A stretch of DNA of 60,709 bases, counting the filler. It is 4 parts of 4 records of this genome, joined end to end, with 100 filler letters (N's around TTAATTAATTAA, not from the genome) between each part and the next. Parts side by side here need not be neighbours in the genome. Positions count along the whole stretch, not along the records: positions 43,349 to 60,709 come from SRR20825019_1784; 3 more parts are not named here. One strand, given 5' to 3'. This document shows, piece after piece, positions 4,518-60,709 of the stretch. Both the position numbers and the translations under genes were made by a program. The notes below the pieces were generated by a model, which searched no databases, was not told where the DNA came from, and saw nothing but the letters and a program-made list of their open reading frames with translations. Position 1 is the stretch's first letter; each line of letters starts with the position of its first letter.

Positions 4518-5609
4518 ATGACACGGCTTACAGACCTCTGGCAGATCGGCGTGGATGCAGTGGGCGGCGACACCAGCGTGCGTCAGTCGCTGCGCGCGCA
4601 TCCCATCACCCCGCCCGACCGCATCATCGCCGTGGGCAAGGCGGCCACCGCCATGGCCCGCGCCGCCGCGTCGCTGTTCCCCGATGCCCCGATGCTGATC
4701 GTGACCAAGGACGGCCATGCGGACGGCGCACCCGCCCATGCCCGGGTGATCGAGGCCGCGCATCCCGTGCCCAATGCCGCCAGCCTGAAAGCAGGTGCCG
4801 TGATGCTGGAGGCGGTGCAGGATTGCGGCCCCGGCACGCACCTCTTGATGCTGGTTTCGGGCGGGGCATCGGCGCTGGCCGAAGTGCTTGAGGACGACCT
4901 GACGCTGGACGATCTGGCGCAGCGGACGCAAGCCAAGCTGGCCTCGGGGGCGGATATTCACCAGATCAACGCCATGCGGCGCGGCCTGTCGCGGATCAAG
5001 GGCGGCAAATTGCTGGAGGCCTTTCGGGGTGCGAAAGTGACCACGCTGGCGATTTCGGATGTCGAAGGCGACAGTCTGGGCGTCATCGGCTCGGGCATCG
5101 GGGATGCGCCTGAAGGCCGGGCATTTGCCCATGATGCGCGCATCGTGGCGTCGAACGCCATCGCGCGGGCGGCCATCGCTCAGGCTGCGCAAGCAGATGT
5201 GCGCAGCAACGCCGAGACGCTCTACGAGGATGTCGCAACCCTTGCCCCGCGCATCGCCGCAGAGCTGAAAGCTGCGCCCGATGGCCTGCATGTCCTTGGC
5301 GGCGAACCCACCGTGATCCTGCCCGAAAATCCCGGTCTGGGCGGGCGGAACATGATGCTGGCCTTGCGTCTGGCCCGTGAGATCGCGGGGGTGGACGACC
5401 TGCAGATTCTGGTGGCCGGCACCGACGGATCGGACGGTCCCACGGACGCGGCAGGGGCCATTGTCGACGGAAAAACATGGGACTCCAGCGGCCAGGCCGC
5501 GATAGAGTCCGCCGCCCCCTACGACTGGCTGGCGGCGCGCGGTGCGCTGCTGAAACCCGGCCCGACTGGCACAAATGTGATGGACCTGCTGATCGCGCGC
5601 AAAGGGTGA
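4518..5609 (+). CDS. MOFRL/DUF4147 glycerate 2-kinase (TtuD-like)
   Basis: AVGKAA, AAHPVP, LVSGGASAL, IKGGKL, ISDV, GGEPTV, GGRN, GTDGSDGPT and GPTGTNVMD; AAGGA RBS before the ATG at 4518. Confidence 0.9.
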   Translation: MTRLTDLWQIGVDAVGGDTSVRQSLRAHPITPPDRIIAVGKAATAMARAAASLFPDAPMLIVTKDGHADGAPAHARVIEAAHPVPNAASLKAGAVMLEAVQDCGPGTHLLMLVSGGASALAEVLEDDLTLDDLAQRTQAKLASGADIHQINAMRRGLSRIKGGKLLEAFRGAKVTTLAISDVEGDSLGVIGSGIGDAPEGRAFAHDARIVASNAIARAAIAQAAQADVRSNAETLYEDVATLAPRIAAELKAAPDGLHVLGGEPTVILPENPGLGGRNMMLALRLAREIAGVDDLQILVAGTDGSDGPTDAAGAIVDGKTWDSSGQAAIESAAPYDWLAARGALLKPGPTGTNVMDLLIARKG

Positions 5610-5649
5610 TCGCCTTGACATCCGGCCCCAGACAGGAAAATCAACGCCC

Positions 5650-10040: not shown

Positions 10041-10140
10041 NNNNNNNNNNNNNNNNNNNNNNNNNNNNNNNNNNNNNNNNNNNNTTAATTAATTAANNNN
10101 NNNNNNNNNNNNNNNNNNNNNNNNNNNNNNNNNNNNNNNN
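10041..10140. other. Artificial contig-joining spacer
   Basis: N44-TTAATTAATTAA-N44 with stops in all six frames. Confidence 0.99.
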
Positions 10141-27512: not shown

Positions 27513-27612
27513 NNNNNNNNNNNNNNNNNNNNNNNNNNNNNNNNNNNNNNNNNNNNTTAATTAATTAANNNNNNNNNNNNNNNNNNNNNNNNNNNNNNNN
27601 NNNNNNNNNNNN
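27513..27612. other. Artificial contig-joining spacer
   Basis: N44-TTAATTAATTAA-N44. Confidence 0.99.
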
Positions 27613-43248: not shown

Positions 43249-43348
43249 NNNNNNNNNNNNNNNNNNNNNNNNNNNNNNNNNNNNNNNNNNNNTTAATTAA
43301 TTAANNNNNNNNNNNNNNNNNNNNNNNNNNNNNNNNNNNNNNNNNNNN
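43249..43348. other. Artificial contig-joining spacer
   Basis: N44-TTAATTAATTAA-N44. Confidence 0.99.
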
Positions 43349-43506
43349 GGGGGGGGGGGGGGGGGGGGGGGGTTACTTGGTACGAGGCCAACTCGCGCTG
43401 TGCTGAGAGGGGCGGGAACACGAAGGGCGCAAATCAAGAAGAGATCTTCCACAGCCTATAAGTGATCACTATAACACTCTCACAGCCTTTGTGGATACTA
43501 TCGAAG

Positions 43507-44262
43507 ATGTTCACCCGTGCCGTCGAGTCATCAAAGCGCTTGTTCACTTCGCATTCATTGCAAGTACGCAACTTGAACCTGCTCTTCCTTGGAGCGCCGG
43601 GTGTTGGGAAGGGTACGTATGCTTCTCGCCTTAAAGGTGTGCTTGGCATCCCCCATATCTCCACTGGCGACATGATTCGTGACGAAATTCGTGCGGGAAC
43701 GCTGCTTGGTCACCGGATTAAAACCCTCGCTGAAGCGGGTGAGCTTGTAGACGATGACACAGTTGTTGGCCTCGCGAAAAACAGGCTTACGAAGGATGAT
43801 GTGAAGGGTGGCTTCATCCTTGATGGATTCCCTCGGACTGTTGGTCAAGCGAAAGCCTTGAAGGACTTCGCTAAGATTGACCTTTGTGTGAACTTAACTC
43901 TCCGCCAAGATATTTTGGTAACCAAGATCGGTGCCCGTCGTAGCTGTGAAGACTGTGGCCGAAGCTACAACATCGCCCATATTAAGGAAGAAGGAATCGA
44001 CATGCCTCCCTTGTTGCCAGACTGCCCTGAGGGCAAGTGTGACGACTGTGGTGGTCACCTGGTTCAGCGAAGTGATGATCGTGAAGAAGTTGTGAAGAGG
44101 CGCCTCGATGTTTACGACAACGAGACTGCTCCGCTGGTTGACTTTTACACACAGGAAGGCATCCTTCGTGATTTCCATGTGGTGGGAGGGGTTGAAGAAC
44201 TGATGCCTAAGTTTGTCGAGTTCATTCATACAGAGAAGAACGCAATCGACAACTCTGTTTGA
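43507..44262 (+). CDS. Adenylate kinase with Zn-lid and probable mitochondrial presequence
   Basis: GAPGVGKGT, HISTGDMIR, FILDGFPRT, CEDC...CDDC lid and QRSDD. Confidence 0.95.
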   Translation: MFTRAVESSKRLFTSHSLQVRNLNLLFLGAPGVGKGTYASRLKGVLGIPHISTGDMIRDEIRAGTLLGHRIKTLAEAGELVDDDTVVGLAKNRLTKDDVKGGFILDGFPRTVGQAKALKDFAKIDLCVNLTLRQDILVTKIGARRSCEDCGRSYNIAHIKEEGIDMPPLLPDCPEGKCDDCGGHLVQRSDDREEVVKRRLDVYDNETAPLVDFYTQEGILRDFHVVGGVEELMPKFVEFIHTEKNAIDNSV

Positions 44263-44442
44263 GTAACTCAAGTTACATGGGTTCATTTAGATAGCTGTAT
44301 TATATAAACACAACAGTGTCAGTGCACAATGTTGCTCCAGCATGTCAAAACATGAAGGGATCCCCAGCGTGCAGTCACGTGCTCAAAATCACACCGCGAA
44401 ACTAGGGAGGCGGAATTGCAGGCAATAGAAGCGAAAAAATGT

Positions 44443-45529
44443 CTACCATATCACACCACCAAAGATCACAATGAAGACGAACAGCACGGCAAACACTTTT
44501 GCGATCAACCACCGATTGCTGGAAACACTGTTCAGATACTTCAGCAGTTCCTGCTCTCCCCTTTGCACATTGGATATAGTATCGTCCACATTGGCGTCGA
44601 TTCTATGAAATCACCAAGTAAGCAACCATCTGGCCACAAGAATCCACTAAGTCACCTTTCTACTTGCTCCCGCTGTTCCTCTATCATTGTTGCCAACCGG
44701 TTGAAGATGGTTCCCAACTCTGCAATCGTGCTTTGCACATTTTGAACAGCCGCCGCGCGATCATTGAGATAGTTGGTTTCCTGCCCCATTACTTGGGCTT
44801 GGGCTTGTTGGGGAATATTGATAACCACGTCGCCTTGGCTGCCATCAGGGTTGCTATTCTGCCTTTGATACATGGGATTATTCGCGGATATTCTCCCTTG
44901 CGTTGTCCCGTAAGAAAACTGATTCTTGCGTTCGTTTTGCTCCTTGAGAGTCTATAGACGGTTTAGAACCCAAGTTCTGCAAATGCGTGGACGCACATTA
45001 CCTCGGTGCGAGTTTCCAGAGCACTCTTGAAGTCTTTCGTTGTATCCGCCAACTTGCTCTTCAGTGAGTTCACAACATTGTTATGATGAGCCGAGACGTT
45101 GTCTCCGCCAGCTTTTTGATTGAGTGACCCAAGGAAGTCAATTTTTTGATTCATTCCTTGAATATCTTGTTTGATCACATAAGTTAGTTCTTGAATGTCG
45201 GCCGCCGGGTCGTCAAATATGGAATTTTTCTGTGTAACTAGACAAGGCTATTAACTCCTACTCGCCATTCAAATTGAAATGGTCATACGCTTTGTGAGTT
45301 TTGCCAGCTTTTGAGAAGTCATGTGAATATCACGTCCAATCTCAGCCGCTACGGACGTGAACTGCGATTTTTGCTGGTTGGGCCGCGAAGGTGCCTTGAT
45401 TGCGCCAGTGCCCATTCGATTCCTTGCATTCTGCACACCTCATAAGCTTAGCCAACACAAGAAACCCAAAAGCCGGACCTCAGCAATAGAAAAGAACTCG
45501 GATGTCCGATCTTTAAATGATGTAGCCAT
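44443..45529 (-). CDS. STX5: Syntaxin-5 (Sed5), multi-exon
   Basis: N-peptide KDRTSEF, IFDDPAADIQELTYVIKQDI, STIAELGTIF and ELLKYLNSVSSNRWL + TM anchor. Confidence 0.93.
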
Positions 45530-45589
45530 CCTAGACTTGTAGGTCAGCACTCATGCGGCTTGTGCGACCTATTTATGGGCACAGTACGC

Positions 45590-46740
45590 GCCGTCGAAGC
45601 AGGACCCGGCGCGGGCGAGATTGGCGGCTCAAACAATAGCAAGCTTCACAGCCTTAGTGAGTGGTTTTCACTTTGGAACGCCGGGTCCGCGGGACGGTAC
45701 TCACTCACTACTCCTGAGGCAGAGCCGGCCGTCAGTCACGGTCGTGCTGGCGGGTTCCTCACTCAGCCCGGTCCCGCGGCTGGCCGACGGAGGGGAGCTG
45801 GAGGCGGGGGCGGTGCCGTGCAGCCGGCGTGACTCGGTTCGTCAGAGACCGGACGGGCCAGCTCGGCCGGCCACCCACTCAGTTCAGCCGAGGCCTCACC
45901 ACTGGCAGGCCATACCCCAGTCCCGTCGGACGGGCTGAGCGCCAGCCACGCTGGCGCCACTCCTGAGCCGGCCGGCCGCCTCAGGTTGGCACCCGCCGGG
46001 CCCGGGGCGAGCCTCCGGCGCGGCATGCATTCCGAAATGACCCGGGCCTGCGGCGGGTCGTCGTCGTATGTCCAGCCACCTGGCCGCGCGGCCGCTACCA
46101 CGACGCCGCCGGCCGGCCGCGGCACCCGGCGCGGCGCTCGCCTCGCCGGCAGCCCGGCGGGCCAGGCCGCCGGGCCCCCGGCGAGCGCCGCAGCGTCGGC
46201 GTTGATCCGTAAGTTTTTGTTTTGGGGAAAGCCCACTTGCTATTGGTTGTCATGTGTCTACATGAAGAGGGTGGCTTTTATGGTGTGATCCAAAAATAAA
46301 CCCTGGACTCCTGGCTGATCTGTTGATATCAGATCAACAGCTGGCCGCCACCAGGCCGACCGGGCCTCGCCCCCCCGCGGGCCCCGCCTGTCAGCGGGGG
46401 CCGTGGTCGTGAATCGCCTGCGCCCCGAGCATGATTGCCGGGGTGGCAACGGGTGTCTCCGGCACAGCAGGTCGGCCTTCCGCCGATTCATCAGCCGGCT
46501 CAGCACCCCTACGGTCCCCTCGTTGTCCGGGTCGGGGCGCGGCACTGCCCGGTCAGGTCTGACCCCCGCCCGGCCGGGGCAGTACTGATGAGGCACGGCC
46601 GCTGACGCCGGCCCCCCCCCAAGGCCCCGCCGGCCTGCCGTGCCGGGGGGTGGCGGAAGGCACGTCGCCGGTGAGCGCTTAGCACACTAACTGACGCGGC
46701 ACTCGCCGGCCCCTGCCGCGCTATGCATTGGGCCTGTCCA
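45590..46740. promoter_or_regulatory. Bipartite GC-rich island between divergent genes with an AT-rich core (about 46200-46340)
   Basis: Sharp composition shifts; CACTCA/GTCAGTCA motifs; 8-bp inverted repeat CTGTTGAT-N5-ATCAACAG at 46320-46340. Confidence 0.5.
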
Positions 46741-46894
46741 ATGACAGTTGTTATTTCACCATTCACTAGCAAGTGTTCGCGACGCTCCCCCTGAAACGTC
46801 ACGTCGTTCGTCCTTACACCGCCGGCTGAGGCAACAAGGTTCACAACCCCAACTCCCTGAGATGGTTTCCGTGAAATAATGGTGGAGCTTTCCA

Positions 46895-47851
46895 ATGCTT
46901 TTATTGGGTTCGTTCGTCATGACTGCAGGCCAGTTCTGCCTTCCTGGCATACGTGTGAAAAGGCCCGATGGGTCTTATCTTAATGGTGACTATTTCTGTA
47001 CCGAGTCGATATCGACGCTTGCCATATGCGCTGTATTTTTCTTCACGTTTCGTTTGCTGTCACGAAAGTTGTCGCGTGCTATGTTCCCCGGTTATAAGAA
47101 ACTCGCGGAACACGACAAGATTCAGTTTGATGATCGGTTGACGTCTCAACTGCATGCTTTTCTCGTTATTCCGGGGGCTGTTTGGTGTACCTTCAAGCTG
47201 TATCACAAAAATTTTAACTTTATTCTGGACGCTCAGTCTAGCGCATGTGACGTGTACCTACTGATGACACTGGGTTTTATGGTTCAAGATTTGCTTTTTA
47301 TGATATGGTATTATCAGCACCTGGGTAGTATTGCCATGGTAGTGCACCATTGTGCAACAATATTTGCGATGTACCTTGTTGTCGCGTATCGGGTAGCTCA
47401 GTTCTATGCTATGTTTGGGCTGATAACGGAAGCATCAACCATATTTTTGAACATGCGGTGGTTTTTGTGGAAGATGAAGATGCAAGATACAAAGTTCTAC
47501 ATGTATAACGGGCAGCTTTTGTTTCTTGTGTTTTTCGTAGTGCGGGCGCTGGGTTTTTTGGTTGTGGAAATTCACATAGCCGTGTACCACAAGGTTATTG
47601 CCACATTACCTACGGTATCAGTTTCCTTATTGGTCATTTCAGTCACGATATTCTTGCTGCTGAATTGGTATTGGTTTTCTCTAATTCTGCGAGGGGTTAT
47701 TCGAGAGTTTAAGAGAAGGGCTAAGAGCCAAGAAGAGATTGAAGAGGAGCAAGAGATCCTTGAGGGTGAGACGGCTGGTGTTGGTGTAGTGAACATGGAT
47801 TCTCCAGGTAGGTCGTGTGAGAATCGAATGTCCGCATCATCAAACGTATAA
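46895..47851 (+). CDS. TLC (TRAM/LAG1/CLN8) domain protein, TMEM56/TLCD4-like
   Basis: SQLHA, DL, VVHH, TEASTIFLNMRWFL, NG..LF..FF.VR and LNWYWF. Confidence 0.9.
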   Translation: MLLLGSFVMTAGQFCLPGIRVKRPDGSYLNGDYFCTESISTLAICAVFFFTFRLLSRKLSRAMFPGYKKLAEHDKIQFDDRLTSQLHAFLVIPGAVWCTFKLYHKNFNFILDAQSSACDVYLLMTLGFMVQDLLFMIWYYQHLGSIAMVVHHCATIFAMYLVVAYRVAQFYAMFGLITEASTIFLNMRWFLWKMKMQDTKFYMYNGQLLFLVFFVVRALGFLVVEIHIAVYHKVIATLPTVSVSLLVISVTIFLLLNWYWFSLILRGVIREFKRRAKSQEEIEEEQEILEGETAGVGVVNMDSPGRSCENRMSASSNV

Positions 47852-47888
47852 AATGTACATAGTCACTTTACGTGTGTTGGATTGACGT

Positions 47889-49197
47889 CTACTCTGCTTT
47901 CCCACTAAGGAGAGGATCGTTTTCTCCAGTGGAATATGGTGGAGGTGCGTCAGCAACACTACTTCTCTTGCGCGGAAGCACTGGACCAGTAGCCACGCGA
48001 CCAATATGATTGAAGTCCTCCTTCTTGTGATCCCGGATATCACCTACTCCATTCGCACGATAATGCTTCTCGCATTGACGTTGATTATGGCACATTGCTA
48101 CCAGGCCACAAATACCAAAAAGGAATCCCCAAGCACCACCCCATTGCCCCAACAAGTCGAGAATTGTCTCATGCACCTGCTCTTCCACAACCAAGTCTTC
48201 CGCAAGTAAGAAAATGATATCAGCGTACAACGAGTCATAGTCAAGCACGTAGTCTTGACGATATGAAAAATGGAGTGAAGAATACTTGTCCATAAAATGA
48301 TCCTGGAATATATAAGGCATCACCCGTGAATGGATTGTGATTTGCTTCTTTGCAAAATACAGATTGCTATGGGTAACATTAGAACATACAGGAACCATCC
48401 TCTGCGATAGAACATGCAGCAATCTCTTACCTGTGCACAGTTCTCCCCTTTGAGAATATCCACGTGAATGCTCTATCTCTTCTAGTCTTCTTCACCTTAA
48501 CTTGAGGCGTCTCTAACTTTCGTATGCTTCTGTGCTGCCATCGTAGAAGCTCCTCCTTGAAGTGCAAGACTAGTACCCCATCCATAACGACCTTGTCAAT
48601 TTCCTCGGGAGACTTGCAGTACGGCTTTCCCGTGCACCGACGCATCTCTACGTTGATCATAACTTGATCTGGAAGCTCTTCGGCACCGTACAAATAACCC
48701 CAATCCTGAGAAGAGGTCAGACCAGCCCGTGGCTACGTGGATACCAAATACCTCTGGACATTTTGCATCAGCATGATACTTCTCCGTGTATTCACTAACG
48801 TAAGAACAGTTTCGTAACCCTAAGTCTATATATTTTTGCCCATCCTCTGCTCCCTTTTTGAACAACTTATACTTAAAAGTGAAGTAGCGCTCGTCGTAGA
48901 AGGTGTCCCCTTCAATACAGTTAGCTCAGTGACAACGCACTGTGCGAGCCACATACCTCCCAGATAAAAGAACAACTTCCAGCTATCCAGCATTGGAACT
49001 GGTTCATCGTCCATAGGCAATGAGGCCGTGAACATTCGTGGAGGGTCGTAGAGAAAACGGTGGGTAGACTTGGCCATGTAGAAAAACATAGTAAGACCTA
49101 TTACTAACGTCCATAAAAACCCACACCATGACTTGTATGAGGGAAAATGATACGTGGGATCGTATCCAAACGCATCAAAGCGTCTCGGATCGCACAT
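47889..49197 (-). CDS. Two-TM protein with large Cys-containing loop (DEG/ENaC-like topology), multi-exon
   Basis: N-terminal TM (CGFLWTLVIGLTMFFYMA), loop with C...C.SPEEI, C-terminal ETILDLLGQWGGAWGFLFG; the ORFs join in frame via GT-AG introns. Confidence 0.7.
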
Positions 49198-49319
49198 CCC
49201 CCTCCCCACAACTTTGGGCGTTACTGTTTTCGGAGTATATTAATAGTGCCTCTTCTTTTGACGGGCTCTCACGATTGACCCGAGTACGCGCAAGTGAACG
49301 AAAAGGTCTCACGGGACGA

Positions 49320-50160
49320 CACGAGCCTCACTATTTCGTAGGCTCTGGGCCGCGCCCGTCCGTCGTACCTCCCACCTTCAGCTCACTCCATTGCGGTGGT
49401 CATGCGCGAGGGCCAACTTCTGTCAAGTGCCTTGGACCGGCTCTCGCCGGCCCGACCCGGGCCTTGCCCAAGTCATCGCCGGGCCGGGCGGGCGGGGGCC
49501 CAAGCCGGCCGGTCAGTCGCGCCCGGCACCGGCCCCTCGCTGACGGCCGGCCGGGACTCCGGGGGCCGGGGGCCTTGAGGTCGTCCGCGGGCGGGACCGC
49601 CCCACGGCCGGCGGCCGGACTGGCCCTACGCCGGCTCACCGGGGGGGCCCAGTCATTGAGTGATGAGCCGGTGCCGAGCCTCTCGGAACAGGTACAACTC
49701 CCCACACATTGGTACAACCAGAAGATCAACTCTAGAAACTCACTGTAGACATAGCGTAGTTCGTTAAATTGAGACATATCCGAAATTGTGTAGATTTGAC
49801 TTCGTAGGCGTAGGCAGCTGGCTGCGCGGGCGGGCCAAACCCGCGGCATGAGCACGTCGCAGTCGCACCCCCGCTGACACTGGGCGGGTTGCGCCGGCGG
49901 CCCCTTCGCCCCGATTGCTGCCCGCCGTCGTCCCTCCGGCCCGACACTGATAGATGGTCAGCAGGCCGCCCTCGCCGGTCCGGCCGGTCCCGCCCAAGCG
50001 TTGTTACTCACATCCTGCGACGCGGTGCGATAGCCGCGGCAGGCTCGGCGACTGGCTGGCCACCATCCGGACGGGATGGACCGTCCGTCTCCAGCGATGC
50101 CGAGTTCAGGTTGCAGGTCACCATACCCAAACACACCTAACACAACAAGCCCGGCCGACA
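49320..50160. promoter_or_regulatory. Bipartite GC-rich island between divergent genes with an AT-rich core (about 49690-49810)
   Basis: Same architecture as 45590-46740. Confidence 0.5.
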
Positions 50161-50278
50161 CATCACCAACCGTCCGTGCTATTCTGGAAAAAGCACGCAT
50201 ATATGCCCGTGCTCACATGCAATGAGAGTTTCAGACAACAGCCTCAACTCCGCGGTGAACTTCACTGGGCAACTCACA

Positions 50279-51727
50279 ATGAGAATGGTAGCGGCCGTAA
50301 GGCCAGCTCCTGTTTTGGTGGGAATATTGCTCATGCTGTCGTGGCATACATATGCCGCGCACAGTGAACCTGAAGGGGGTACTGAGGACTCCGGGGGAGT
50401 TGTAACTGGGCGGGTGGTCTATGACCATGGGAAGGGGCGAAACAGATGGGCATGTTCCAGAGGGGGCATTGGGCTATTCCGTCCTGAGAACTGGAAAGTA
50501 GCTTCGCGAGACTTGCGACAGCACAGTCCAGTTGCTGGGTTTCCTATACTGGGCAGAGATCTCAACGGGTTTTTAGGCGCTGGACTACCGACGGGAAAGT
50601 TTGTGATTGCTGCTGAACTGCGGTGCTTACCTAGGACTGGAGGGCACGAGGTCATTCTGCGTGGGACATATGGTAGTTGGAATAATCCGAAAGTTATTTC
50701 GGTAAATGCTGGCGTGGGGGTTCATGATATTGTTATCCATGTTAGCCGGCATCCTGAACGGATTCAAAATGCTGCTGAAAAGGTGATCGTGCCCATGGAG
50801 TTCGACGAAATTGCACGCAAAGCCAACTCGGAAGAAAAAGCATCTCACACAAACCTTGGAGTTGCACTGGCGAAGGAGTCCGAAATGGAGGCGTATTCTA
50901 ATCTGGTGGAAAAACAGCTGGAGGCTGAGAGTAGTGTTCCTGCTCCAAGTTCTTTGCAACAACCTCGACGTCAGCTTAGACACAGCGTGGCATCAGACTT
51001 GACTGAAAATACGCCAACGACGGGAACAACAGGAGAAGCAACTGTAACACCAGAGCCGTCTGGGTTTGCAAATTCCACAGGGTCTGTGCCTGAGGTTTCT
51101 CCTGTAGAGACACCTGCGAATACGGGTATAGGAGGGGAGGGAAATAATGCCACTGTGCCGCACAGTCCTGCATTGCCAAGGCCAGGGGAAGTCGAAACCC
51201 CGGTAGACGGTGCGGCAAGGGCTGAAGAGCAGGCCAAGGGACTGGTGGAAGAAATGGCCAAGAATGCAACTGAATCTGCACGGCATAATGAGACCGAGGG
51301 AGCGAGCACCCCGACTGCGTCTGAAGTTGATGCAGCCGCGGCCGCAGCAAACCGCACTGCTCGTCAGGAGCACAGGGAACTTAATGGACAGGCAGGGCTG
51401 GCTGTGTCCAATGGCACTGACGGTATTGACGAGCTTGCGGGGGCAGTTGCTACTGCGAATGTTTCACGGGATGCACTAGGGGCTTGGGCAACACCTGAGG
51501 AGCCAGTTACTGGGGGGTCAAGTGCTGAACAACAGATGGTTCAGCTATTTACAGCTTTGCTTGAGTCACACGTTGAGTATGCCAAGAGCCGGTTACTATT
51601 CGAGGCATATGCAGTCAATGGAATCAACGAAGACATTGGGATGGTGAAGCAGTTTGAGACGGTCCTTAATGGATTTGTGATGGATGCATCGGATGACGAA
51701 AGCGTGACTCCAATTGCAGAGCTTTGA
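50279..51727 (+). CDS. Secreted hypothetical protein with a low-complexity T/E/A/P-rich region
   Basis: Long intronless ORF; signal-like PVLVGILLMLSWHTYAA; several NxS/T sequons; the ORF could start at 50222. Confidence 0.65.
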   Translation: MRMVAAVRPAPVLVGILLMLSWHTYAAHSEPEGGTEDSGGVVTGRVVYDHGKGRNRWACSRGGIGLFRPENWKVASRDLRQHSPVAGFPILGRDLNGFLGAGLPTGKFVIAAELRCLPRTGGHEVILRGTYGSWNNPKVISVNAGVGVHDIVIHVSRHPERIQNAAEKVIVPMEFDEIARKANSEEKASHTNLGVALAKESEMEAYSNLVEKQLEAESSVPAPSSLQQPRRQLRHSVASDLTENTPTTGTTGEATVTPEPSGFANSTGSVPEVSPVETPANTGIGGEGNNATVPHSPALPRPGEVETPVDGAARAEEQAKGLVEEMAKNATESARHNETEGASTPTASEVDAAAAAANRTARQEHRELNGQAGLAVSNGTDGIDELAGAVATANVSRDALGAWATPEEPVTGGSSAEQQMVQLFTALLESHVEYAKSRLLFEAYAVNGINEDIGMVKQFETVLNGFVMDASDDESVTPIAEL

Positions 51728-52659
51728 TTGGTTGATCTTGGTTTCTAGCGATGATACTCTACTGGTTTGTAAATCAGACCTGCTGTGATTTATGAGTGTG
51801 GAAATATGTGAAGCTTATTAGATAGGTGGCTTGGGCACGGAGAGGGGGGGTTCCAATATTTTGCTGTGACTTGAAAGTGGGCAGGAAGACGTGGTTATAT
51901 GCCTGTGATGATCCTGCGCAGTCTCATTACATCTTTTAGGTCAAGTCGCTGTTAGTGTACTGGCTGTATCATATAGCCCGGCAAGTAACTCAGTATCAGT
52001 AGGTAGGGGATGCGTGCACTGCCGTTGCTAAAGGTAGGAAGGGCGGCCCGCTCAGCCTGTCGGCAACTCTAGTCAACTCATCTGTTTCAGTGCATTTGCC
52101 ACAACCTCAGCATTATCCAAGTCTCACTCAGCACGGCACAGCCACGGACACCAAGTTCTGACTGCCACCGAGGCCCTCCCCAAGGCCCCATGGGGCCCAG
52201 CGCCCTCGAGTGAGACCGCGAGTCGATCAGTAGGGTGACTACTCTCAGTCACCCTCGTCCGGGGCAGCCGTTTCTCAACTTGAGCCCGAGGCTTGGCCAC
52301 ACTTGCTGGCACCGTGCAGTCATCGCAAGCGGCAAGGCGCCGAGCGCTCGCCGGTCAGGGTCCCCGGCGCTGGGTCCGCCCCGCAGCAGGCTCGTCCGGG
52401 GGGCCGCCCTCCGATCCCTGGTGACGCTCGCCCCCGCGCCGCGCCCCCGTCACGCTCCAAGCGGTGGTCGCCGGCCCAGCCCGCAATGACACCGTGTCAG
52501 AGTTCCCGCAATCTATGGTGAGGGGTACGTCAACACGCTGGCAATCCATCGGCACTTCCCGCCAGCTTCAGTATATATCTGCCTGTTGTTATGCACACAC
52601 TGAGAAGGCATAGAGCAGTCACTGTTGCAGTTCAAGAAGGATAGAGAACGTGGGGTGAT

Positions 52660-54921
52660 ATGGACATACACACCGATCCTCTCACGAAGGCGCTCCTGTG
52701 TAGCCGAAGGTGCCAGCGGGAGGCACTCCGCCAACTGTTAGGAAAGACTGGATCAAGTAGTGGCGGTGTTGCAACAACTGGAGAAGATGTAACAGCGGAA
52801 ACTGTAGACATTTTGAAATTTGCACAGTCTGGCAAGGACAGTGGGCGCGCGATGGCGGCTGCGGAGGCTTCACGCGCGTTCAGAACAGCGGAAGTGCAGC
52901 CACCAATGGAAGATGAGGCAGGATCTCCGGAGCGCAGGTCACGCTCCAGCACTGCAATATCTGGGGAGTTGACACCTGGGGGAGAGGCTAAAGGGAAGAA
53001 ACTCAGCATGGCAGGGCATGAAATTGGAGAAGAGCGAGGGAAAGTAGTCGGAGAAACTGAAAGTATACAAATGGAGGTGAAGTTTGCATCAGAGTTTGCT
53101 CAGTTAGTGAAAGATACCCTGCCGTCCGAAGACATGGCTTCACGGTCTCCTCATCAGCCTCCACCCCGTAGTCGCGGCCGTAAGTCATCTGTTGATAGCC
53201 AGACTAGTGTTGTGGAGGCAAGAGAGCATGCACAGAGACTTCAGGCCACATCACGTAGTCGGAACTTTGGGAATGTAGGGCCTTCCTTTTGTTTAGTGGA
53301 TTCCAGAGAGGCAGTGAGCGAGGTTGCCCTGCTGTCGAGAGTGAATGCAGTCATAGAAGTAATACCCGGGCAAGAAAATTCAATGGTCGTGCCCGAAGAA
53401 TCGAGCGATCGCCATGAGAAGGCATTCAGCGACACTGATGATGATTCAGAGGCAGCACAGAATGGACCCTCGCCTAGTGATTGGAACAAGCGCACTGCGG
53501 CTCGCAGTGATCCGCAGCAACACCTGTTTGCCCCCGAGGACATCCTGCGTGGATTATATTATGGGCGACAGGTCTTGACGGCGCAACCGAGTCGTGAGAA
53601 GATTCTTGTTATTGTTACGGACTGTGCGAGTATGTGGATAGGCGTGGTGATCCGCTCTGCACTGATGAACACGAAAAGATCTTCTGCTGTTGGCACGCCA
53701 AATGCACGCTTTTCGGCGGCTTTGAATATTGCGATTGGACCGACTGCCCTTGCTCAAGCATTGGCAAACAACGGATCGATGCTACAGTATCGCAGTACAA
53801 GCTGTGTCCGTGAGCCAGATGAAGGCTTGTCCATTGTTGAAGGCCGCAAGATCCTCGCTGGTCTCATTGCGATGACATCCACGGAACTAGGACGAGAAGC
53901 TGTTCCAATCATACATGCAAGCCAGGGTCTCGATGTGGCGAAGAAGGACAAATGGTGGGCGCGCCTCCTTGGAGGACGGAATCGGGGCCAAAAGAACATT
54001 ACGCCCCTTCATTGCCCTGTAGCCTTGCGGATGTTGGGCAGCGGCGGCACGGCGGGTGTATTTGAGGTGTATGAATTATTGCCAGGACATTCCAAGGTTG
54101 CGGGACATGACAGCTTTTCCTCTGATCCGCGCACTCCAATGAGCACCATGCCTATTAGTGACCATGGTGGTTCCTTGGACAGTGAGCCCTGGTGGCTTGG
54201 TGGAGCTAGCGAACCTGTTTCAATACGGACATGTGCATTGAAGGTATTCTTTGGGCAGCGTTGCTTGGAGAGAAGGGATAGCGAGGTTCAGCTCATGAGT
54301 GATCTTGCAAACAAAGGCGTGCCATCCATACCAACCATAATATCCACGGGATCGACATCATGGAAGGGAGAGGAACAAGCGCCATACATGGTGTTTGAAC
54401 CTGTGGCGGAAGAAATTGACACGCTGAACCCGCGAATGCTATTAGATGTGATCAAAGCGTTGAAATCTTGCCACAAGGCTGGCATCGTTCACTGCGATGT
54501 GTCTCCCTCTAACATTATGATGCATGATGGGAAGGCGATATTGATTGATTTTGGACTCTCACGGAAGGTGGGAGCTACCCTTGACCTCGCATCGACTCCG
54601 CAGTTTGCGGGCAATGATCATATAGGATCCATTGAGGCAGGTAGGCCACACAAGTACATGCCGTTTGATGACCTTGCGGCACTTGTGAGGAGTGTGATGT
54701 ATTTCCAGTTCCGCTATGCTCCTGAGGAGGACGGATCTGACTTCGTCAAGAATTACTGGAACAGTTTGCTTAGCGACAACGCATTTTCGGGCCAGAATAT
54801 GGACCATCTCGCGAAGGAGTGTGATTACGCTGGACTGTATGAAGCGCTGCAAAAGTACTGTAGGCTAGATGAGGATGACGTCATTACGTCAGCCAATGTG
54901 AAGGATGCGCTGGGTTTTTAG
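52660..54921 (+). CDS. Protein kinase with N-terminal extension (FunK1/Crinkler-like)
   Basis: LGSGGTAGV, ALK, HCDVSPSNIM, LIDFG, TPQF and DDL; upstream YGRQVLTAQPSR...VTD. Confidence 0.8.
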   Translation: MDIHTDPLTKALLCSRRCQREALRQLLGKTGSSSGGVATTGEDVTAETVDILKFAQSGKDSGRAMAAAEASRAFRTAEVQPPMEDEAGSPERRSRSSTAISGELTPGGEAKGKKLSMAGHEIGEERGKVVGETESIQMEVKFASEFAQLVKDTLPSEDMASRSPHQPPPRSRGRKSSVDSQTSVVEAREHAQRLQATSRSRNFGNVGPSFCLVDSREAVSEVALLSRVNAVIEVIPGQENSMVVPEESSDRHEKAFSDTDDDSEAAQNGPSPSDWNKRTAARSDPQQHLFAPEDILRGLYYGRQVLTAQPSREKILVIVTDCASMWIGVVIRSALMNTKRSSAVGTPNARFSAALNIAIGPTALAQALANNGSMLQYRSTSCVREPDEGLSIVEGRKILAGLIAMTSTELGREAVPIIHASQGLDVAKKDKWWARLLGGRNRGQKNITPLHCPVALRMLGSGGTAGVFEVYELLPGHSKVAGHDSFSSDPRTPMSTMPISDHGGSLDSEPWWLGGASEPVSIRTCALKVFFGQRCLERRDSEVQLMSDLANKGVPSIPTIISTGSTSWKGEEQAPYMVFEPVAEEIDTLNPRMLLDVIKALKSCHKAGIVHCDVSPSNIMMHDGKAILIDFGLSRKVGATLDLASTPQFAGNDHIGSIEAGRPHKYMPFDDLAALVRSVMYFQFRYAPEEDGSDFVKNYWNSLLSDNAFSGQNMDHLAKECDYAGLYEALQKYCRLDEDDVITSANVKDALGF

Positions 54922-54963
54922 CAGCGGTGCACTTCAGCGGCATTCACATATACGCGTTTATGT

Positions 54964-56239
<1,276 letters not shown>

Positions 56240-57228
56240 GTTGGCTAGATAAATATGTATAATAAGTGAGTATTGCTCGCTTAAATAAGTGTGAGTTAGC
56301 TGGGTCTCTTGGTGGAGACGATGCGCGTAGACACTCAGCCAGTAACCGCCAGAGCCGGCGGCGAACCGGTCACGACCACTCGGACGATCGAACTCTCTTA
56401 CTGGGTTCTCGTGAGAGAGTTCCTTGGGAGTGAATGGAGGCTAACGAAAGAAGTCTGCCGGCCGAAACACCGCTGGTGACCTCTCCACGCGCTACTTCGG
56501 CCCGGTTGTGGCCTATTGAGGGCCGGCCGCTGGACGCAGCTGGTCCGGGTCTGGCCGCTGCGGGGATCGTCACGGTGGGCCGGGTGCGGCGCCGGGCAAG
56601 GGCGGACCGAGGGGCCAGTCCGGGTCCTGCGGGAGTGAGGGCGTCGATCAGGGCCCCCACTGGTTCCGAGAAAGAACGGCCTATCTTGATTAGTAGCACT
56701 TGTAGTCACATGTGTAAATGTATCTACCGCTATTATTCTCTTATATTCCAATTTGTGAAGATAATGGTCGCTAAGCTATGCGGTGAACGCTTGGAAAACT
56801 GTGGGCATTTGGTCATCTGTTACACGCCCTTAAGTTAACGACTCTCTATCTCACTTCCATCTCCCGGATAAGGACTCTTATCCGCTTGCTTCACGAAATC
56901 AACGGCGGGTTTCGTATGCACACTTGAAATCGATACCTAGAGTCAGATCGTCGGTGACGGCTGAGGTTCGTTACCATGCAGCAAGCCACAGACAGTAAAA
57001 CGGTCAGGGACCGGGGTGTACTGGTGCTGTGACAAGAGCAACCTCTTCGACCGTGAGGGCTTGCAAGAAGAAGGTATCTGAGCGAGCCTCTCTCTTGCAG
57101 AGTCTTGTTTCAGGGAGGTCATAAGGCGGATTCTTGGCACCCTATACATATATGTGTCGGATTAATTAGTGAGTATTCACACCCCTTCATTCTCTCTAAC
57201 CCTAACCCTACGCACACACCTGTGCATA

Positions 57229-59055
57229 ATGAATGTTTTGGCTGCTCCCTCGACTCACACAGGAAACCACTACTACGCGCACATGCCCTATGGTATGGCC
57301 TCGGCGCCGGCTTTCGTTGACACCAATCCAATGCCTATCGATGTGAAGCAACAACCAAAGCAAGACCCGGGGATGTATGCCTACGCCGATGGAAGCATGA
57401 GGGCCAATAACATGGGATATCGTTCTGCCCACCCTGAGTGTAAGTAACCATGAACAAAGTGCCGTTGGAGTGTAGCTACTAATACAACTGTAGATGATGG
57501 ATCACGTAGAAAGAGAAGGCCTAGCAAGTCGTCTTCTGATGATCAATCTGAGCCAATGCTTGGCGCTGAGGAGGCTCAACAGCTGCTTTCGGAGTTGGAT
57601 GCCGTAAACAGCCGACTGCAAATGGCCCTTCATGGGGATGGAATGTACGGAAATGCGCCGGCCTCTCCTCGTCAAACTGATGTGAAGCTCTACCGTACTC
57701 GAGATGAACTGCTTAACAAGGCTGTGAAGAGGATTCCCGGCTTCGTTCCCCCAGCAGATTTCAACCCTCCTAAAAAGCTCATTCGCAAAATTTATGTTCC
57801 TGTTAGGGAACACCCCAACTACAACTTCATGGGCGCATTGCTAGGACCACGAGGAATGACCCAGAAGAAGTTAGAGCAAAGCACTGGTGCAAAGATTGCA
57901 ATTCGCGGGAAGGGATCGATGAAGGAAGGCAAAGGTCGTCGCGACGGCAAACCTGTTGAAGGCATGGATGACGAACTTCATGTAGTAATATCCGCTGAGA
58001 GTGAGGAGTCGCTTGATGCGGCTGTCGCGGAGATCGAAAGGCTTCTTGTTCCTATTCCAGATGAGGAAAACCACCACAAGCGCCTGCAATTGGCCGAGCT
58101 TGCCCGACTTAACGGAACGTACCGGGACTTCGGCGCATGCGGAACATGTGGTGAAAAGGGTCATTCAACTTTCAAATGTCCCAAAGTCCCTCCTCAGGTG
58201 GCTGCGATGGCCGCAAGTGGTGCTGAGCACGCTGTTCATACTCTGACGAAGACTTCAAGTCATCACAGCCTGAATGATACTATGTCTTCGATTCATGGAG
58301 CTGAGAGTGATGGCAACTCAAGTGACGGTTCATCTCAGGAAGGACGACGTGCTCCCCAGCTCCGCTCTGGAGCATTCAAGTCGTCCACGGGTGGACTTCT
58401 TGAAACTCCGATGATCCCGGCTGCCTCAACATCTTCGAGTCACTCTAGTGGGCAGTCTAACGGTGCCATTGGTCCCAATGCGACTACTGCTCCCGTCACT
58501 ATGCCTGCAGAGGTTACCACGAGTTCACTTTTCCTAACTCCTGCTCGTCCTAAGGGCGAAAGAATGACTGGACTGGGAACCTACGAAAATCCGGAGACTC
58601 CGCAAGTTACAAAGACTAAGACCAATATCCCCGCTGAATCGCCTGGGGAAATACCAGCCGTCGTTGCGGGTGTTGTTGCCGCTGGTCTTACCAGCCCAGC
58701 TACCCCCGACATGGACAAGACTGAATGCCCTGCTGCCTTGGACTATGCGCAACTGTATGCTCCATTTGCGACGGGATACTCCGGATTCTACCCCCAACAA
58801 GCCCAGGCACAGAGCACCAACAGTTCTTGGTCTCAAGCAAGTCTCTTCCAGCAGAGTCAGCAGCACTTCTTCCAAGCGCAACAGCACGCTGTTGCTTCAT
58901 CGGCCTCGACTTCTTCAGCGGGGACTGCTACACTACCACAACAATCATATAACCCAGTGCAAACTAATCAACAGCATTTTGGATTCTCAGCCCAGCAATT
59001 TTCCTTCAGTAAGCAATGGGGCGAGCAAGACCTGGGCGGCCAGGTTGTCCTGTAG
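57229..59055 (+). CDS. SF1: Splicing factor 1/branchpoint-binding protein-like (KH-QUA2, CCHC knuckle)
   Basis: PPADF, HPNYNFMGALLGPRG.TQK, GAKIAIRGKGS, QLAELARLNGT and CGTCGEKGH...C; intron 57440-57493. Confidence 0.85.
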
Positions 59056-59156
59056 AAGGCACCCTTTGAGCTAATAACCCAGGCATATGTGTACTATTCG
59101 TAAATACAATAAAACTGACACAAAACTGACACAAATTATTCACTAATTGGGTTTAA

Positions 59157-60209
59157 CTACAACCGCGTCTCTGAGTTCATGACCACTGATGGCCCATGGT
59201 CCCCAAATGTTTCTTCTCCGAATGTCATTGTGCGACATTCCACAGGTGCATCTAACAAAGCGCTGATCTCTTTTCGCACATTTTTGTACTGCTTGCTGAT
59301 TCTATGCATGGCCAGAGCATCACTTCCCCAAAGAGAAAACACCTTGTACCTGCCCTTGCCTCCCCTCAACTGAATGTTGTGGCATCCCGCGACTGTACGC
59401 GCCCATATCATGTATGACTCCATAACGCTACTGAACTTTGATTCGTTGCCTTCTTTCACAATGTATTTTTCACACCCATAAACATATTCCGTTTCATTTT
59501 CTTCACCATGTTCGTTGACAAGAGCACTGGTTCCATCAAAGTCAGGTTGGGGCATATTGTTGTCTCCTTCTACTTCTTGTAGTGAGGCTTTCCTCCTCGC
59601 TGCACGCCTCCCTGCTCTTGTGGTGAGATTTACGTCGCTCTCAATGTTGCCAGCATTCTGAGTCCTGTAGTCCGTACCCCTGGTAAAGGAATCTTCAGGA
59701 GCCACACTCTCAGGAAATGTCCCTGGGTGACCTCGTGACAAATCTTCCATCTTATGGGTTGCTGTCTGGTATACCATTGACAAAGACTCAATCGCTTCAT
59801 GGGCACAGTTGAGAAGCACCCGGTCGCGGAATTGGTCGGTACTGCTGCTTCCCTCATATTCCTTAAAACTTTTAGTCAGGGCCTCATTAGTCTTGTCGCT
59901 GACGTCTTCAATAAGCTGGAAGACCGGGCCATAAGTATCAAAACGGCACATAAAAAATTCACAGAGTTCATCCACACTGACAGTACCATTACCAGCAGTG
60001 TCAATCTTTGAAAATACTTCAGTTAGCTCTTCATCAGAGAGTACCGATGACTGAAAATATGAGCAAAACTCTTCAGAGTCAAGGCTTCCGTCATCATTTT
60101 TGTCAGCACGTCGGAAAACATCTGAAAACAATCGAATTCCTGGCAGTCCGTCGACTACTCTGCGTGCAACATCATAAAATGTACGGCTATCGGTGGTGGA
60201 GTTGTCCAT
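59157..60209 (-). CDS. NECAB-like protein: N-terminal EF-hands plus C-terminal ABM domain
   Basis: FRRADKNDDGSLDSEEF, IDTAGNGTVSVDELCEFF, NECAB-homology helix (KEYEGSSSTDQFRDRVLL) and ABM-like GCHNI...YKVFSLW....H. Confidence 0.85.
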   Translation of the reverse strand: MDNSTTDSRTFYDVARRVVDGLPGIRLFSDVFRRADKNDDGSLDSEEFCSYFQSSVLSDEELTEVFSKIDTAGNGTVSVDELCEFFMCRFDTYGPVFQLIEDVSDKTNEALTKSFKEYEGSSSTDQFRDRVLLNCAHEAIESLSMVYQTATHKMEDLSRGHPGTFPESVAPEDSFTRGTDYRTQNAGNIESDVNLTTRAGRRAARRKASLQEVEGDNNMPQPDFDGTSALVNEHGEENETEYVYGCEKYIVKEGNESKFSSVMESYMIWARTVAGCHNIQLRGGKGRYKVFSLWGSDALAMHRISKQYKNVRKEISALLDAPVECRTMTFGEETFGDHGPSVVMNSETRL

Positions 60210-60709
60210 AAAAAGATTGAAAAGGAAGTGATAAGACACCAATTTTTCACTACTACGGTTGTGTATACTTGTGCTCAGTGACATGAAAGTCTTATGAGAG
60301 TGAAGGACCCACTGCAGCACTCTTTCTGGGGCCGGTACTGATCAAACGGAGACGAGACCAATAGACGCTCCCTACCACACAACGCGCTTGGTCGACTGGT
60401 CTGATTGATGTCGGCGTTCCGGGCACAGTCCGGTCCGCACCTTGGGGGGGCCGAACCGGTGGCCCAGCGCGGACCCGGGCGGGGGGTGCGGGGCGGCCCG
60501 TCAAAAGCTCCGACAGCGCTCACCACTGACTCGCAGGGATGCTAGCTACCGCCCCAACCCCGCTCAGCTCCTCACTTCGGCCCGAGCACCCACGGGCCGC
60601 AGACCAGTGAGGGGAGACCTTGGGTGTTTCTTTAAATAGGACTCTCATCAGTGAGTCACGTTTGTGGTAGTTTGGTTTGGAAGTGTCGAAAAGTAATCTT
60701 TGCAATTTT

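Follow-up and report, generated by a model that had tools for sequence, protein, structure and literature searches.

The NECAB-like reading frame on the minus strand of the stretch of DNA analysed here (60,709 nucleotides, hereafter the window) is genuine and intact, and its product, P0001, is a full-architecture homologue of the NECAB family and more than an EF-hand protein. Judged by its sequence, P0001 is a very divergent member of this already known family. Our best explanation, which we hold to be probable, is a genuine, intact and highly divergent NECAB protein from a compact-genome eukaryote that most likely lies outside the animals. An earlier note, made from the letters of the window, had proposed an EF-hand, a second EF-hand, a helical region and a C-terminal ABM-like domain in one intronless ORF, and the translation, Pfam, a structure model and a family profile bear this out.

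The gene and its contig

The window does not hold up as one stretch of a genome, as the earlier note had treated it, but consists of four unrelated contigs joined by identical artificial linkers (N44 + TTAATTAATTAA + N44). The first 27.5 kb are bacterial, two of the four contigs are Sulfitobacter-like, and only the contig at 43349-60709 belongs with the NECAB-like gene. Because the first 27.5 kb are bacterial and the GC3 of the third contig is clearly different, markers outside 43349-60709 cannot be used to place the gene. The contig itself is gene-dense, carrying seven genes or more within 17.4 kb, and its introns measure 51-58 nt (Table 1). Pfam sweeps covered stop-to-stop ORFs (29/114 of at least 150 aa, 86 ORFs of at least 70 aa on the fourth contig and 47 ORFs on the third); no syntaxin to match the STX5 of the earlier note was found among these swept ORFs, small exons lying outside such a scan. 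Rfam, at gathering thresholds, matched nothing anywhere in the window, nor did it at E<=1 over 60200-60709, and the tRNA scan returned no genes.

The reading frame of P0001 is open upstream as far as 60320. Since its relatives align collinearly in one stretch, from aa 23 to about 330, the gene is read as intronless. Contigs of sequencing run X1 span 59142-60237 and those of run X2 span 59143-60241, free of indels, with a single difference from the window ORF at 59562 (D216E, in the linker); as both runs are from one sample, possibly the window's source, this cover does not count as independent support. Positions 60277-60400 are uncovered and 59116-59141 are spanned by none of the X1/X2 contigs, and no inference is drawn from such gaps.

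Table 1 Position of the NECAB-like gene, its protein domains and neighbouring features along the window
Feature	Position	Strand	Evidence or remark
NECAB-like protein P0001, complete CDS	59157..60209	-	350 codons + stop, uninterrupted, without intron
EF-hand pair, aa 26-87	59949..60134	-	Pfam EF-hand_7/6/1/8/5, PDB sequence matches, structure match
EF-hand loop 1, aa 36-47	60069-60104	-	D36-K-N-D-D-G-S-L-D-S-E-E47; canonical at all ligand positions
EF-hand loop 2, aa 70-81	59967-60002	-	D70-T-A-G-N-G-T-V-S-V-D-E81; Ala at loop position 3
NECAB-homology-type helical region, aa 90-158	59736..59942	-	two long helices, 90-118 and 123-158; block pLDDT 87-97
Charged low-confidence linker, aa 159-240	59490..59735	-	sits where the family coiled-coil segment lies; motif lost
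ABM-type domain (dimeric alpha+beta barrel/ferredoxin-like), aa 241-338	59196..59489	-	predicted fold, structure matches, family profile
SF1/branchpoint-binding protein (BBP), KH domain	57556..59055	+	Pfam KH-I_KHDC4-BBP E 7.8e-20, homologue search, tree; convergent neighbour of the NECAB-like gene
MAPK-like kinase gene, neighbour	55066..56236	-	Pfam Pkinase on three ORF pieces
Introns of the MAPK-like gene, 54/51/58 nt	55833-55886, 55655-55705, 55321-55378	-	frames and junctions; each GTATG...AG
Artificial linkers	10041-10140, 27513-27612, 43249-43348	.	all identical; the last marks the start of the gene-bearing contig, 43349-60709

Domain architecture of P0001

Pfam places the EF-hands at aa 28-87 (EF-hand_7 with E 1.1e-11, EF-hand_6 and EF-hand_1 each matching two stretches), the E-values of the EF-hand models ranging from 1e-11 to 7e-8. 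The PDB sequence matches of this part are CDPK, calmodulin and recoverin, and model residues 20-93 are matched by VIA to troponin C and calmodulin-derived chains with Z 10.4-11.3. The EF-hand motif quoted in the earlier note corresponds to loop 1, from D36 to E47, while EF-hand 2 offers no side-chain ligand at the third position of its loop. Each position of the motif F-R-R-A-D-K-N-D-D-G is shared by 19-28 of 29 relatives, the longer flank F-x-D-V-F-R-R-A-D-K-N-D-D-G is family-specific, and the flanking motif of the family (F.DVFRRADKNDDG...EF..YF) is present in the EF-hand pair of P0001.

The EF-hands are followed by the conserved helical region, which forms the first part of the NECAB homology region. 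P0001 keeps Y118, Q126, F127, R130, L133 and A150, which match positions that 24-29 of 29 relatives share (26-29 of 29 for the signature residues Y118, Q126, F127 and R130), and carries C and A in place of the family E135 and Q139. Elephant NECAB3 is 39% identical to P0001 over aa 24-163, that is, past the EF-hands (BLASTP 6e-26). The central coiled-coil segment, with the family consensus L..QV.RL..L.D.LE, is not conserved in P0001: five of its six signature positions are replaced, the family residues L199, Q202, V203, L206 (29/29), L209 and L213 corresponding to A, R, A, R, S and V. This region is modelled at pLDDT 35-56, and within the linker pLDDT falls below 50 at aa 163-196 and 215-236.

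The C-terminal domain escapes Pfam: PF03992 (ABM; cut-off 23.1 bits) matched neither the whole of P0001 at E<=1 nor aa 237-345 alone at E<=10, and a PDB sequence search with the domain returned Rv0793 as the sole match (E 0.28). In the structure model, aa 241-331 are predicted to form beta-alpha-beta-beta-alpha-alpha-beta with pLDDT >94. Foldseek gave 112 PDB matches at E<=1e-3 with ABM proteins first (top 1y0h_A, E 4e-8, TM 0.82), and the best VIA match, 2gff_A, superposes on model range 242-334 with Z 14.6 and rmsd 1.7 over 93 residues; the VIA top ten (Z 14.6-13.3, model range about 238-338) are all ABM, LsrG or related chains. The C-terminus is thus predicted to adopt the ABM fold by superposition of an alignment-dependent model on solved ABM proteins; the confidence in this fold depends on the alignment of homologues, because the single-sequence AlphaFold control of P0001 folded poorly (mean pLDDT 40.6, beta-sheet domain absent). 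A profile HMM of the ABM region, made from 29 other aligned proteins with P0001 left out, scores the P0001 C-terminus at 44.0 bits (E 1.7e-12), compared with 8.4 bits for the best of 2000 shuffled controls, 1825 of which were reported at all. Profile and fold together argue for homology of the domain to the ABM of other NECABs. Among its conserved residues F259, Y266, C276, W294 and H302 are kept, while E292, P331 and W334 are changed to S, G and T, respectively, and the C-terminal P..W motif is absent. A complex prediction with two copies of aa 237-345, run with neither alignment nor controls, scored 0.01 and counts neither for nor against pairing.

Family membership, host organism and competing explanations

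Database searches consistently lead to NECABs. All three word-index matches are named NECAB, full-length matches named NECAB1-like come from a mollusc, a lancelet, a sponge and a shark, and it is to the NECABs, not to another EF-hand family, that the nearest relatives belong; the best of them are NECAB-like proteins with 25-33% full-length identity. The BLASTP and HMM searches suggested in the earlier note recovered the EukProt NECAB-like protein P0002 (3e-30, aa 27-330) and, by exhaustive HMMER search, 690 relatives at E<=1e-3 (122 of them at E<=1e-10), many covering aa 23-330. EF-hands together with PF03992 at E<=0.01 occur in 27 of the 27 relatives aligned full-length to P0001; PF03992 lies above the Pfam cut-off in 24 of them and scores 17-22 bits in the other three. 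The nearest language-model clusters are NECAB3 and NECAB1 (0.93, with 196 of 256 features in common).

In the gene tree of 33 rows, all named animal sequences fall into one clade of 16 rows with 100/99 support, and P0001 lies outside it, as do the proteins of Mantamonas, Gefionella and Anaeramoeba. The P0001 branch is the longest (3.11 changes per column), its grouping with any protist protein reaches 60/82 support at best, and an AU test did not reject P0001 joined to 14 animal-clade rows (delta lnL 6.94, p 0.248). The phylogeny called for in the earlier note therefore separates P0001 from the supported animal clade but does not reject an animal affinity. That the EF-hand + ABM fusion predates animals, as the note had suggested, is supported by sequence comparison through Mantamonas, Gefionella and two Anaeramoeba species, the same-architecture proteins of the latter being encoded on contigs of 1.2-17 Mb, and not by this contig alone; since this architecture is already in the databases, a pre-animal origin draws its support mainly from these proteins.

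Regarding the host, the SF1/BBP tree places the contig's BBP outside an opisthokont clade with 99% SH-aLRT support, and its best matches (51-59%) are plants, a streptophyte alga, heteroloboseans and diatoms, the only animal SF1 among the matches listed reaching 40%. Adenylate kinase, proposed as a further marker, failed to place the contig: its best matches reach 48-57% identity, and those ranked highest among the named ones carry archaeal MAG labels, so this protein is uninformative as a taxonomic marker. The best identities of the three proteins searched (P0001, adenylate kinase and BBP) are 33%, 57% and 59%, with no close relative, and the placement in both single-gene trees is unreliable because the window sequences sit on long branches. 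The unicellular, non-animal host of the earlier note is favoured, though not demonstrated, by the compact contig, its short introns and the position of BBP, but is weakened by the AU result and the lack of close relatives; on balance we take the organism to be most likely no animal. That the contig instead stems from an animal, either a small or fast-evolving one or one whose DNA was present in the sample, and that the gene is an ordinary if divergent invertebrate NECAB-like one, appears distinctly unlikely to us. The AU test and the uncertain placement of so long a branch would accommodate an animal source, and some animals do have compact genomes with very short introns. Against it stand the exclusion of P0001 from the clade of all named animals, the BBP with its non-animal best matches, and a near-canonical EF-hand 2 as in the protist relatives, whereas most animal rows are of the D-T-H-N-T-N type.

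The divergence of P0001 also bears on whether it still works as a NECAB. It departs from its relatives at sites conserved in 27-29 of 29 (D54S, E135C, L206R, E292S, P331G) and at W334T (26 of 29), and because near-invariant positions are substituted, its function may have changed or be decaying. A relic or neofunctionalised copy, with folds kept but NECAB-type function lost and possibly no catalysis or pairing, would fit these changes, the longest branch of the tree, the loss of most coiled-coil signature positions and an ABM domain undetected by Pfam. We regard such a copy as unlikely, given that the 350 codons run uninterrupted both in the window and in the contigs of two runs, with D216E in the linker as the only difference, that the core residues F259, Y266, W294 and H302 and the entire EF-1 motif are kept, and that the family ABM profile still yields 44 bits. 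A convergent origin outside the NECABs, in which a generic EF-hand pair was joined independently to a bacterial-type ABM domain, is highly improbable: both domains are ancient and widespread, and the ABM part, missed by Pfam, is 10-22% identical to solved bacterial ABM proteins, yet aa 90-158 between the domains are themselves homologous to NECABs, the EF-1 flank is family-specific, the NECAB ABM profile reaches E 1.7e-12 where a bacterial ABM sequence reaches only E 0.28, and the alignments to relatives are collinear over the whole length.

For the preferred reading, a divergent but intact NECAB protein, P0001 would act as a cytosolic calcium sensor. Judging from the loop sequences, Ca2+ would bind the canonical EF-hand 1 and perhaps, weakly, EF-hand 2; binding could change the packing of the EF-hand/helical module, which in turn might alter the behaviour of the ABM domain on its flexible tether, be it pairing with another ABM domain, as in bacterial ABM proteins, or binding a small ligand or partner. 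As a disordered charged linker replaces the coiled coil, any self-association would have to run through the helical region or the ABM domain. A 2024 review puts forward Ca2+ as a possible control of dimerisation or partner binding by the ABM of NECABs, and according to it none of the NECAB ABM domains has an established biochemical function (PMC11624857).

Literature context and comparison with known systems

The same review lists NECAB-like proteins in cnidarians, chelicerates, echinoderms and the lancelet (PMC11624857), so the statement of the earlier note that this architecture defines vertebrate neuronal NECAB1-3 is too narrow. Another article describes NECABs as conserved in vertebrates and missing from fly and worm (PMC9326220), and ABM domains outside NECABs are limited to bacteria and green algae according to a preprint (bioRxiv 10.1101/2021.02.15.431234). 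The literature searched (subscription journals and supplements being outside the search) contained no report of protist or choanoflagellate NECABs, did not trace NECAB-like proteins deeper than cnidarians and gave no match for an EF-hand + antibiotic biosynthesis monooxygenase domain architecture in eukaryotes; in two NECAB papers the word "unicellular" refers to green-algal ABM haem oxygenases. Prior documentation of protist NECABs, which the earlier note would have counted against its reading, exists as database entries but not as reports in this literature.

We give about even credence to the view that the NECAB design is an ancient eukaryotic calcium-regulated ABM protein, dating from near the last eukaryotic common ancestor and not an animal or neuronal invention, and that the contig represents a fast-evolving, poorly sampled protist lineage which kept the two folded modules and dropped the coiled coil. 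If so, the design would span CRuMs, malawimonads, Anaeramoebae, animals and the organism of this contig, and its core biochemical function could be approached in unicellular organisms, in which neuronal partners play no part. NECABs have been studied as neuronal proteins; the deep-protist relatives and P0001 shift the question away from "NECAB in neurons" and offer natural variants, such as P0001 without its coiled coil, that indicate dispensable parts. The gain from this window is modest, namely one further, very divergent NECAB-family sequence.

Compared with vertebrate NECABs, P0001 has the same order of parts, the EF-hand flanking motif, the C-terminal ABM domain and a similar length (350 aa versus 351-396 aa according to PMC11624857). 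It differs in a full-alignment identity of only 21-24%, in the lack of the conserved coiled-coil and C-terminal P..W motifs and in its intronless gene, and the neuronal partners of the vertebrate proteins cannot be assumed for it. According to the same review, NECAB1 and NECAB3 have lost the second functional EF-hand (PMC11624857), whereas EF-hand 2 of P0001 is near-canonical. Invertebrate NECAB-like proteins (sponge Oscarella, annelid Capitella, mollusc Ruditapes, lancelet Branchiostoma and EukProt Seg2114.4) are of the single-copy type, 317-351 aa long, and share EF-hand + ABM with P0001, to which they align over aa 23-330; the 100/99 clade they form with vertebrate proteins excludes P0001, although the AU test does not reject its joining them.

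The protist EF-hand + ABM "hypothetical proteins", from Anaeramoeba ignava (KAJ5072269), A. flamelloides (KAJ3441369, KAJ6246276), Mantamonas plastica (EP00003_P026767), Gefionella okellyi (EP00698_P008539) and one MMETSP transcript, resemble P0001 in architecture, size and position outside the animal clade. An Anaeramoeba protein has the highest identity to P0001 in the tree alignment, at 26%; no protist protein is close, and unlike P0001 the protist proteins keep both the coiled-coil and the C-terminal P..W motifs.

With regard to the C-terminal domain alone, the IsdG/MhuD/LFO1-type ABM haem oxygenases have been proposed as a functional analogue of the NECAB ABM (PMC11624857; bioRxiv 10.1101/2021.02.15.431234). 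The 50 VIA matches listed include no IsdG-type chain, which in itself does not speak against such a resemblance. Enzymes of the IsdG type carry a catalytic Asn/Trp/His triad in the haem pocket, and a Trp and a His are kept in P0001 and its family (W294, H302), which may or may not be the counterparts of those in the triad. The stand-alone ABM proteins of bacteria and archaea (Rv0793, 1y0h; LsrG, 2gff/3qmq; MM_1583, 4dpo; YgiN, 1r6y; SnoaB, 3kg0; ActVA-Orf6, 1lq9) differ from P0001 in being single-domain proteins of about 100 aa with 7-21% identity to its domain, and since their activities differ among themselves, the ABM fold alone predicts no substrate; they share with the model of P0001 a fold over about 90-98 residues, with Z 10.6-14.6 and rmsd 1.4-4.0.

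Architecture and family membership of the NECAB-like protein

The NECAB-like gene has a reading frame that stays open upstream of its start as far as 60320 on the minus strand. Pfam places an EF-hand pair at residues 28-87 of its product, P0001 (EF-hand_7, E 1.1e-11), with EF-hand_6 and EF-hand_1 each matching two stretches, and a PDB sequence search returned calmodulin-like sequences over the same region. Read from the translation by the general rule for ligand positions in EF-hand loops, loop 1 (D36-E47) has the canonical ligand pattern and loop 2 (D70-E81) carries Ala at the third position. In the structural model, the EF-hand pair (residues 20-93) has its own matches, to troponin C and to calmodulin-type chains (VIA-align, Z about 10.4-11.3).

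A word-index search with P0001 returned three proteins, each of which bears a NECAB name. BLASTP aligned residues 27-330 with the EukProt NECAB-like protein P0002 (28% identity, 3e-30) and residues 24-163 with elephant NECAB3 (39% identity, 6e-26), the latter alignment extending well beyond the EF-hands into the helical region; judged by such alignments, P0001 is far more than a generic EF-hand protein. In an exhaustive HMMER search of 1.84 billion representatives, 690 relatives passed E<=1e-3 and 122 passed E<=1e-10; no E-value was as low as 1e-30, the best being 4e-26 at 30% identity. Many of these relatives were about 300-350 aa long and aligned in a single stretch over residues 23-330. At E<=0.01, each of the 27 relatives scanned with Pfam matched PF03992 (ABM) as well as EF-hand models; 24 of them passed the 23.1-bit ABM cut-off, and the other three scored 17-22 bits. 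Source names were looked up for 20 representatives, seven of which had no name at all; the set included animals (Ruditapes, Branchiostoma, Capitella, Oscarella, sharks), protists (Anaeramoeba ignava, A. flamelloides, Mantamonas plastica, Gefionella okellyi, an MMETSP transcript), a JGI protein with 'quinol monooxygenase YgiN' as its sole name, and a single EukProt transcript. The Anaeramoeba relatives are encoded on contigs of 1.2-17 Mb. In the language-model Atlas, the nearest clusters to P0001 were NECAB3 and NECAB1 (0.93, 196/256 features).

The Pfam ABM model itself matched neither the whole of P0001 at E<=1 nor residues 237-345 alone at E<=10. A NECAB-type ABM HMM was built from the ABM columns of the 29 other rows of A1, our 30-sequence alignment, with P0001 left out; it scored residues 237-345 at 44.0 bits (E 1.7e-12), against a maximum of 8.4 bits among 2000 shuffled controls. 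AlphaFold2 with A1 gave a model of mean pLDDT 78.7, in which residues 241-331 form a beta-alpha-beta-beta-alpha-alpha-beta unit at pLDDT above 94. Foldseek matched 112 PDB chains to the model at E<=1e-3. Rv0793 (1y0h; E 4e-8, target TM 0.82, rmsd 1.7 over 93 columns) ranked first, with LsrG and annotated ABM proteins among the other leading matches, and VIA-align gave Z 14.6 for 2gff_A (model residues 242-334) and 14.2 for 1y0h_A. Rv0793 was also the sole, weak match of residues 237-345 in a PDB sequence search (E 0.28). As a single-sequence fold was poor (pLDDT 40.6), the fold evidence depends on the homologue alignment. The family HMM, the predicted fold and the weak PDB sequence match together say that the C-terminal domain is a NECAB-type ABM, so that the ABM-like domain proposed in the earlier note is borne out by the 44.0-bit score and the Z 14.6 fold match.

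Make-up of the window and possible transcript

The window had been read as one genome stretch, a view that three identical linkers contradict, since they mark four concatenated contigs. Contigs 1 and 2 (1-27512; GC 0.64 and 0.62) carry long uninterrupted bacterial-type ORFs, including an S15 peptidase that shares 94% identity with a Sulfitobacter MAG and 90-93% with Pseudosulfitobacter, and probably derive from a marine roseobacter whose DNA was assembled along with that of the eukaryote. The ORFs neighbouring the peptidase encode an SBP_bac_5 transporter protein, domains of xanthine dehydrogenase and a fusion of OHCU decarboxylase and deacetylase. Genes of eukaryote type, split into pieces, lie on contig 3 (27613-43248), among them a DAO/GCV_T dehydrogenase in several exons and an LRR protein; GC3 is 0.69-0.76 in its genes versus 0.45-0.61 in those of contig 4, and the two may represent different organisms or genome compartments. 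With two bacterial contigs and a third of other GC3, the gene can be placed from contig 4 (43349-60709) alone.

Features of the window
Feature	Position	Strand	Remarks
S15 peptidase	5593-7665
Artificial linkers	10041-10140, 27513-27612, 43249-43348	.	44 N + TTAATTAATTAA + 44 N
G run	43349-43372		24 G, start of contig 4
Adenylate kinase	43507-44262	+	contig 4
TLC-domain gene			contig 4
Long ORF	50141-51727	+	528 aa; no Pfam family
Long ORF	52645-54921	+	758 aa; partial Pfam match of ~60 residues, kinase catalytic loop region
MAPK-like kinase gene	55066-56236	-	introns of 54, 51 and 58 nt, all GTATG...AG
SF1/BBP gene	57556-59055	+	contig 4
NECAB-like ORF	59157-60209	-	contig 4; 350 codons, single open frame (translation)
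GC-rich island	60390-60620		GC 0.71

Contig 4 is 17.4 kb long and carries seven genes or more. The G run at its start resembles a contig-end artefact of sequencing or assembly, and the MAPK-like kinase has a T-Q-Y activation-loop motif. The GC-rich island (contig 4 overall, GC 0.525) lies ~180 nt upstream of the NECAB-like ATG; Rfam gave no match to it at E<=1, and none of its ORFs has a Pfam family.

Contigs from X1 and X2, two small sequencing runs of one sample, span 59142-60237 and 59143-60241 and thus cover the whole NECAB-like ORF without indels, differing from the window only by G>T at 59562 (D216E, in the linker); as this sample may be the window's source, they are not independent support. 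Among sequencing runs recorded as RNA, none contains the gene. Both contigs run past 60237 and 60241 into identical adapter-like letters and stop at 59142 and 59143, while a separate X1 contig ends at 59115 on the side of the convergent BBP (branchpoint-binding protein) gene. Such ends, which we take to resemble full-length cDNA with a template-switch adapter, cannot prove RNA ends. If they are cDNA ends, they point, as a lead only, to a transcript of 1.1 kb with 28-32 nt of leader, whose first ATG would be that at 60209, since 60210-60241 contains no ATG on the minus strand.

Divergence and source organism

P0001 is 18-26% identical to the other 29 rows of A1 and is not very typical of the family. 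It keeps the EF-1 motif, Y118, Q126, F127 and R130 in the helical region, and F259, Y266, C276, W294 and H302 in the ABM domain; changes at positions common to 26-29 of the 29 relatives are D54S, E135C, E292S, P331G and W334T. The main departure is the central coiled-coil motif, where R replaces L206, a residue common to 29/29 relatives, and A, R, S and V stand in place of L199, Q202, L209 and L213, respectively. This segment and its surroundings were modelled as disordered (pLDDT below 50 at residues 163-196 and 215-236).

None of the contig 4 proteins searched has a close relative. Adenylate kinase reaches 57% identity at best; its nearest relatives include several labelled Aenigmarchaeota MAGs, odd for a eukaryotic contig and labels that may deserve a check, and its eukaryotic matches (Vitrella, an oomycete, a cercozoan) rank lower. 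BBP is at most 59% identical to anything found, the best named matches being plants, Spirogloea, two heteroloboseans, Syssomonas and two diatoms, and in a quick tree its branch is long (2.38) and attaches outside a clade that unites fungi, Syssomonas and a nematode with 99% SH-aLRT support. The source is probably a fast-evolving, poorly sampled eukaryote that is not an opisthokont.

An animal origin of contig 4 would be quite improbable on this placement of BBP and on that of P0001, whose terminal branch (3.11) is the longest in a 33-row ML tree and which falls outside the 100/99-support clade containing all named animal sequences, joining the Mantamonas/MMETSP group weakly (60/82). Forcing P0001 with the 14 animal-clade rows lowers the log-likelihood by 6.94 units, a grouping that the AU test does not reject (p 0.248); the gene tree leans away from animals, though not decisively. 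The non-animal source inferred earlier agrees with both trees, whereas the AU test leaves room for an animal affinity.

Age of the fusion and comparison with known NECABs

NECABs are described as vertebrate-conserved and missing in fly and worm (PMC9326220), and single NECAB genes are reported from cnidarians, some chelicerates, echinoderms and lancelets (PMC11624857, section 17). According to a preprint, ABM domains outside NECABs are confined to bacteria and green algae (bioRxiv 10.1101/2021.02.15.431234), and in the NECAB papers covered, 'unicellular' refers only to green algae; the literature searched yielded nothing pairing NECAB with choanoflagellates, protists or Holozoa. Since databases already contain full-architecture EF-hand + ABM proteins from three deep protist lineages, the suggestion that the fusion pre-dates animals gains support from those proteins, but contig 4 only adds one divergent, unplaced example: P0001 is, on present alignments, one more and very divergent instance of a known NECAB design. 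An ancient eukaryotic Ca2+-sensing ABM protein may have been taken wrongly for a neuronal invention, which merits a proper survey.

By analogy with NECABs, proposed as calcium sensors (PMC11624857), P0001 would most likely act as one: Ca2+ would elicit a response of the EF-hand/helical module, and this would alter how available the ABM domain is for pairing, or the helical region for partners. A haem-oxygenase idea for the NECAB ABM also exists in the literature. With the coiled coil gone, the model suggests two folded modules tethered by a flexible linker of ~80 residues. In NECAB2 of zebrafish, the helical region associates with itself, as does the ABM domain, and mGluR1 is bound by the helical region (PMC9326220).
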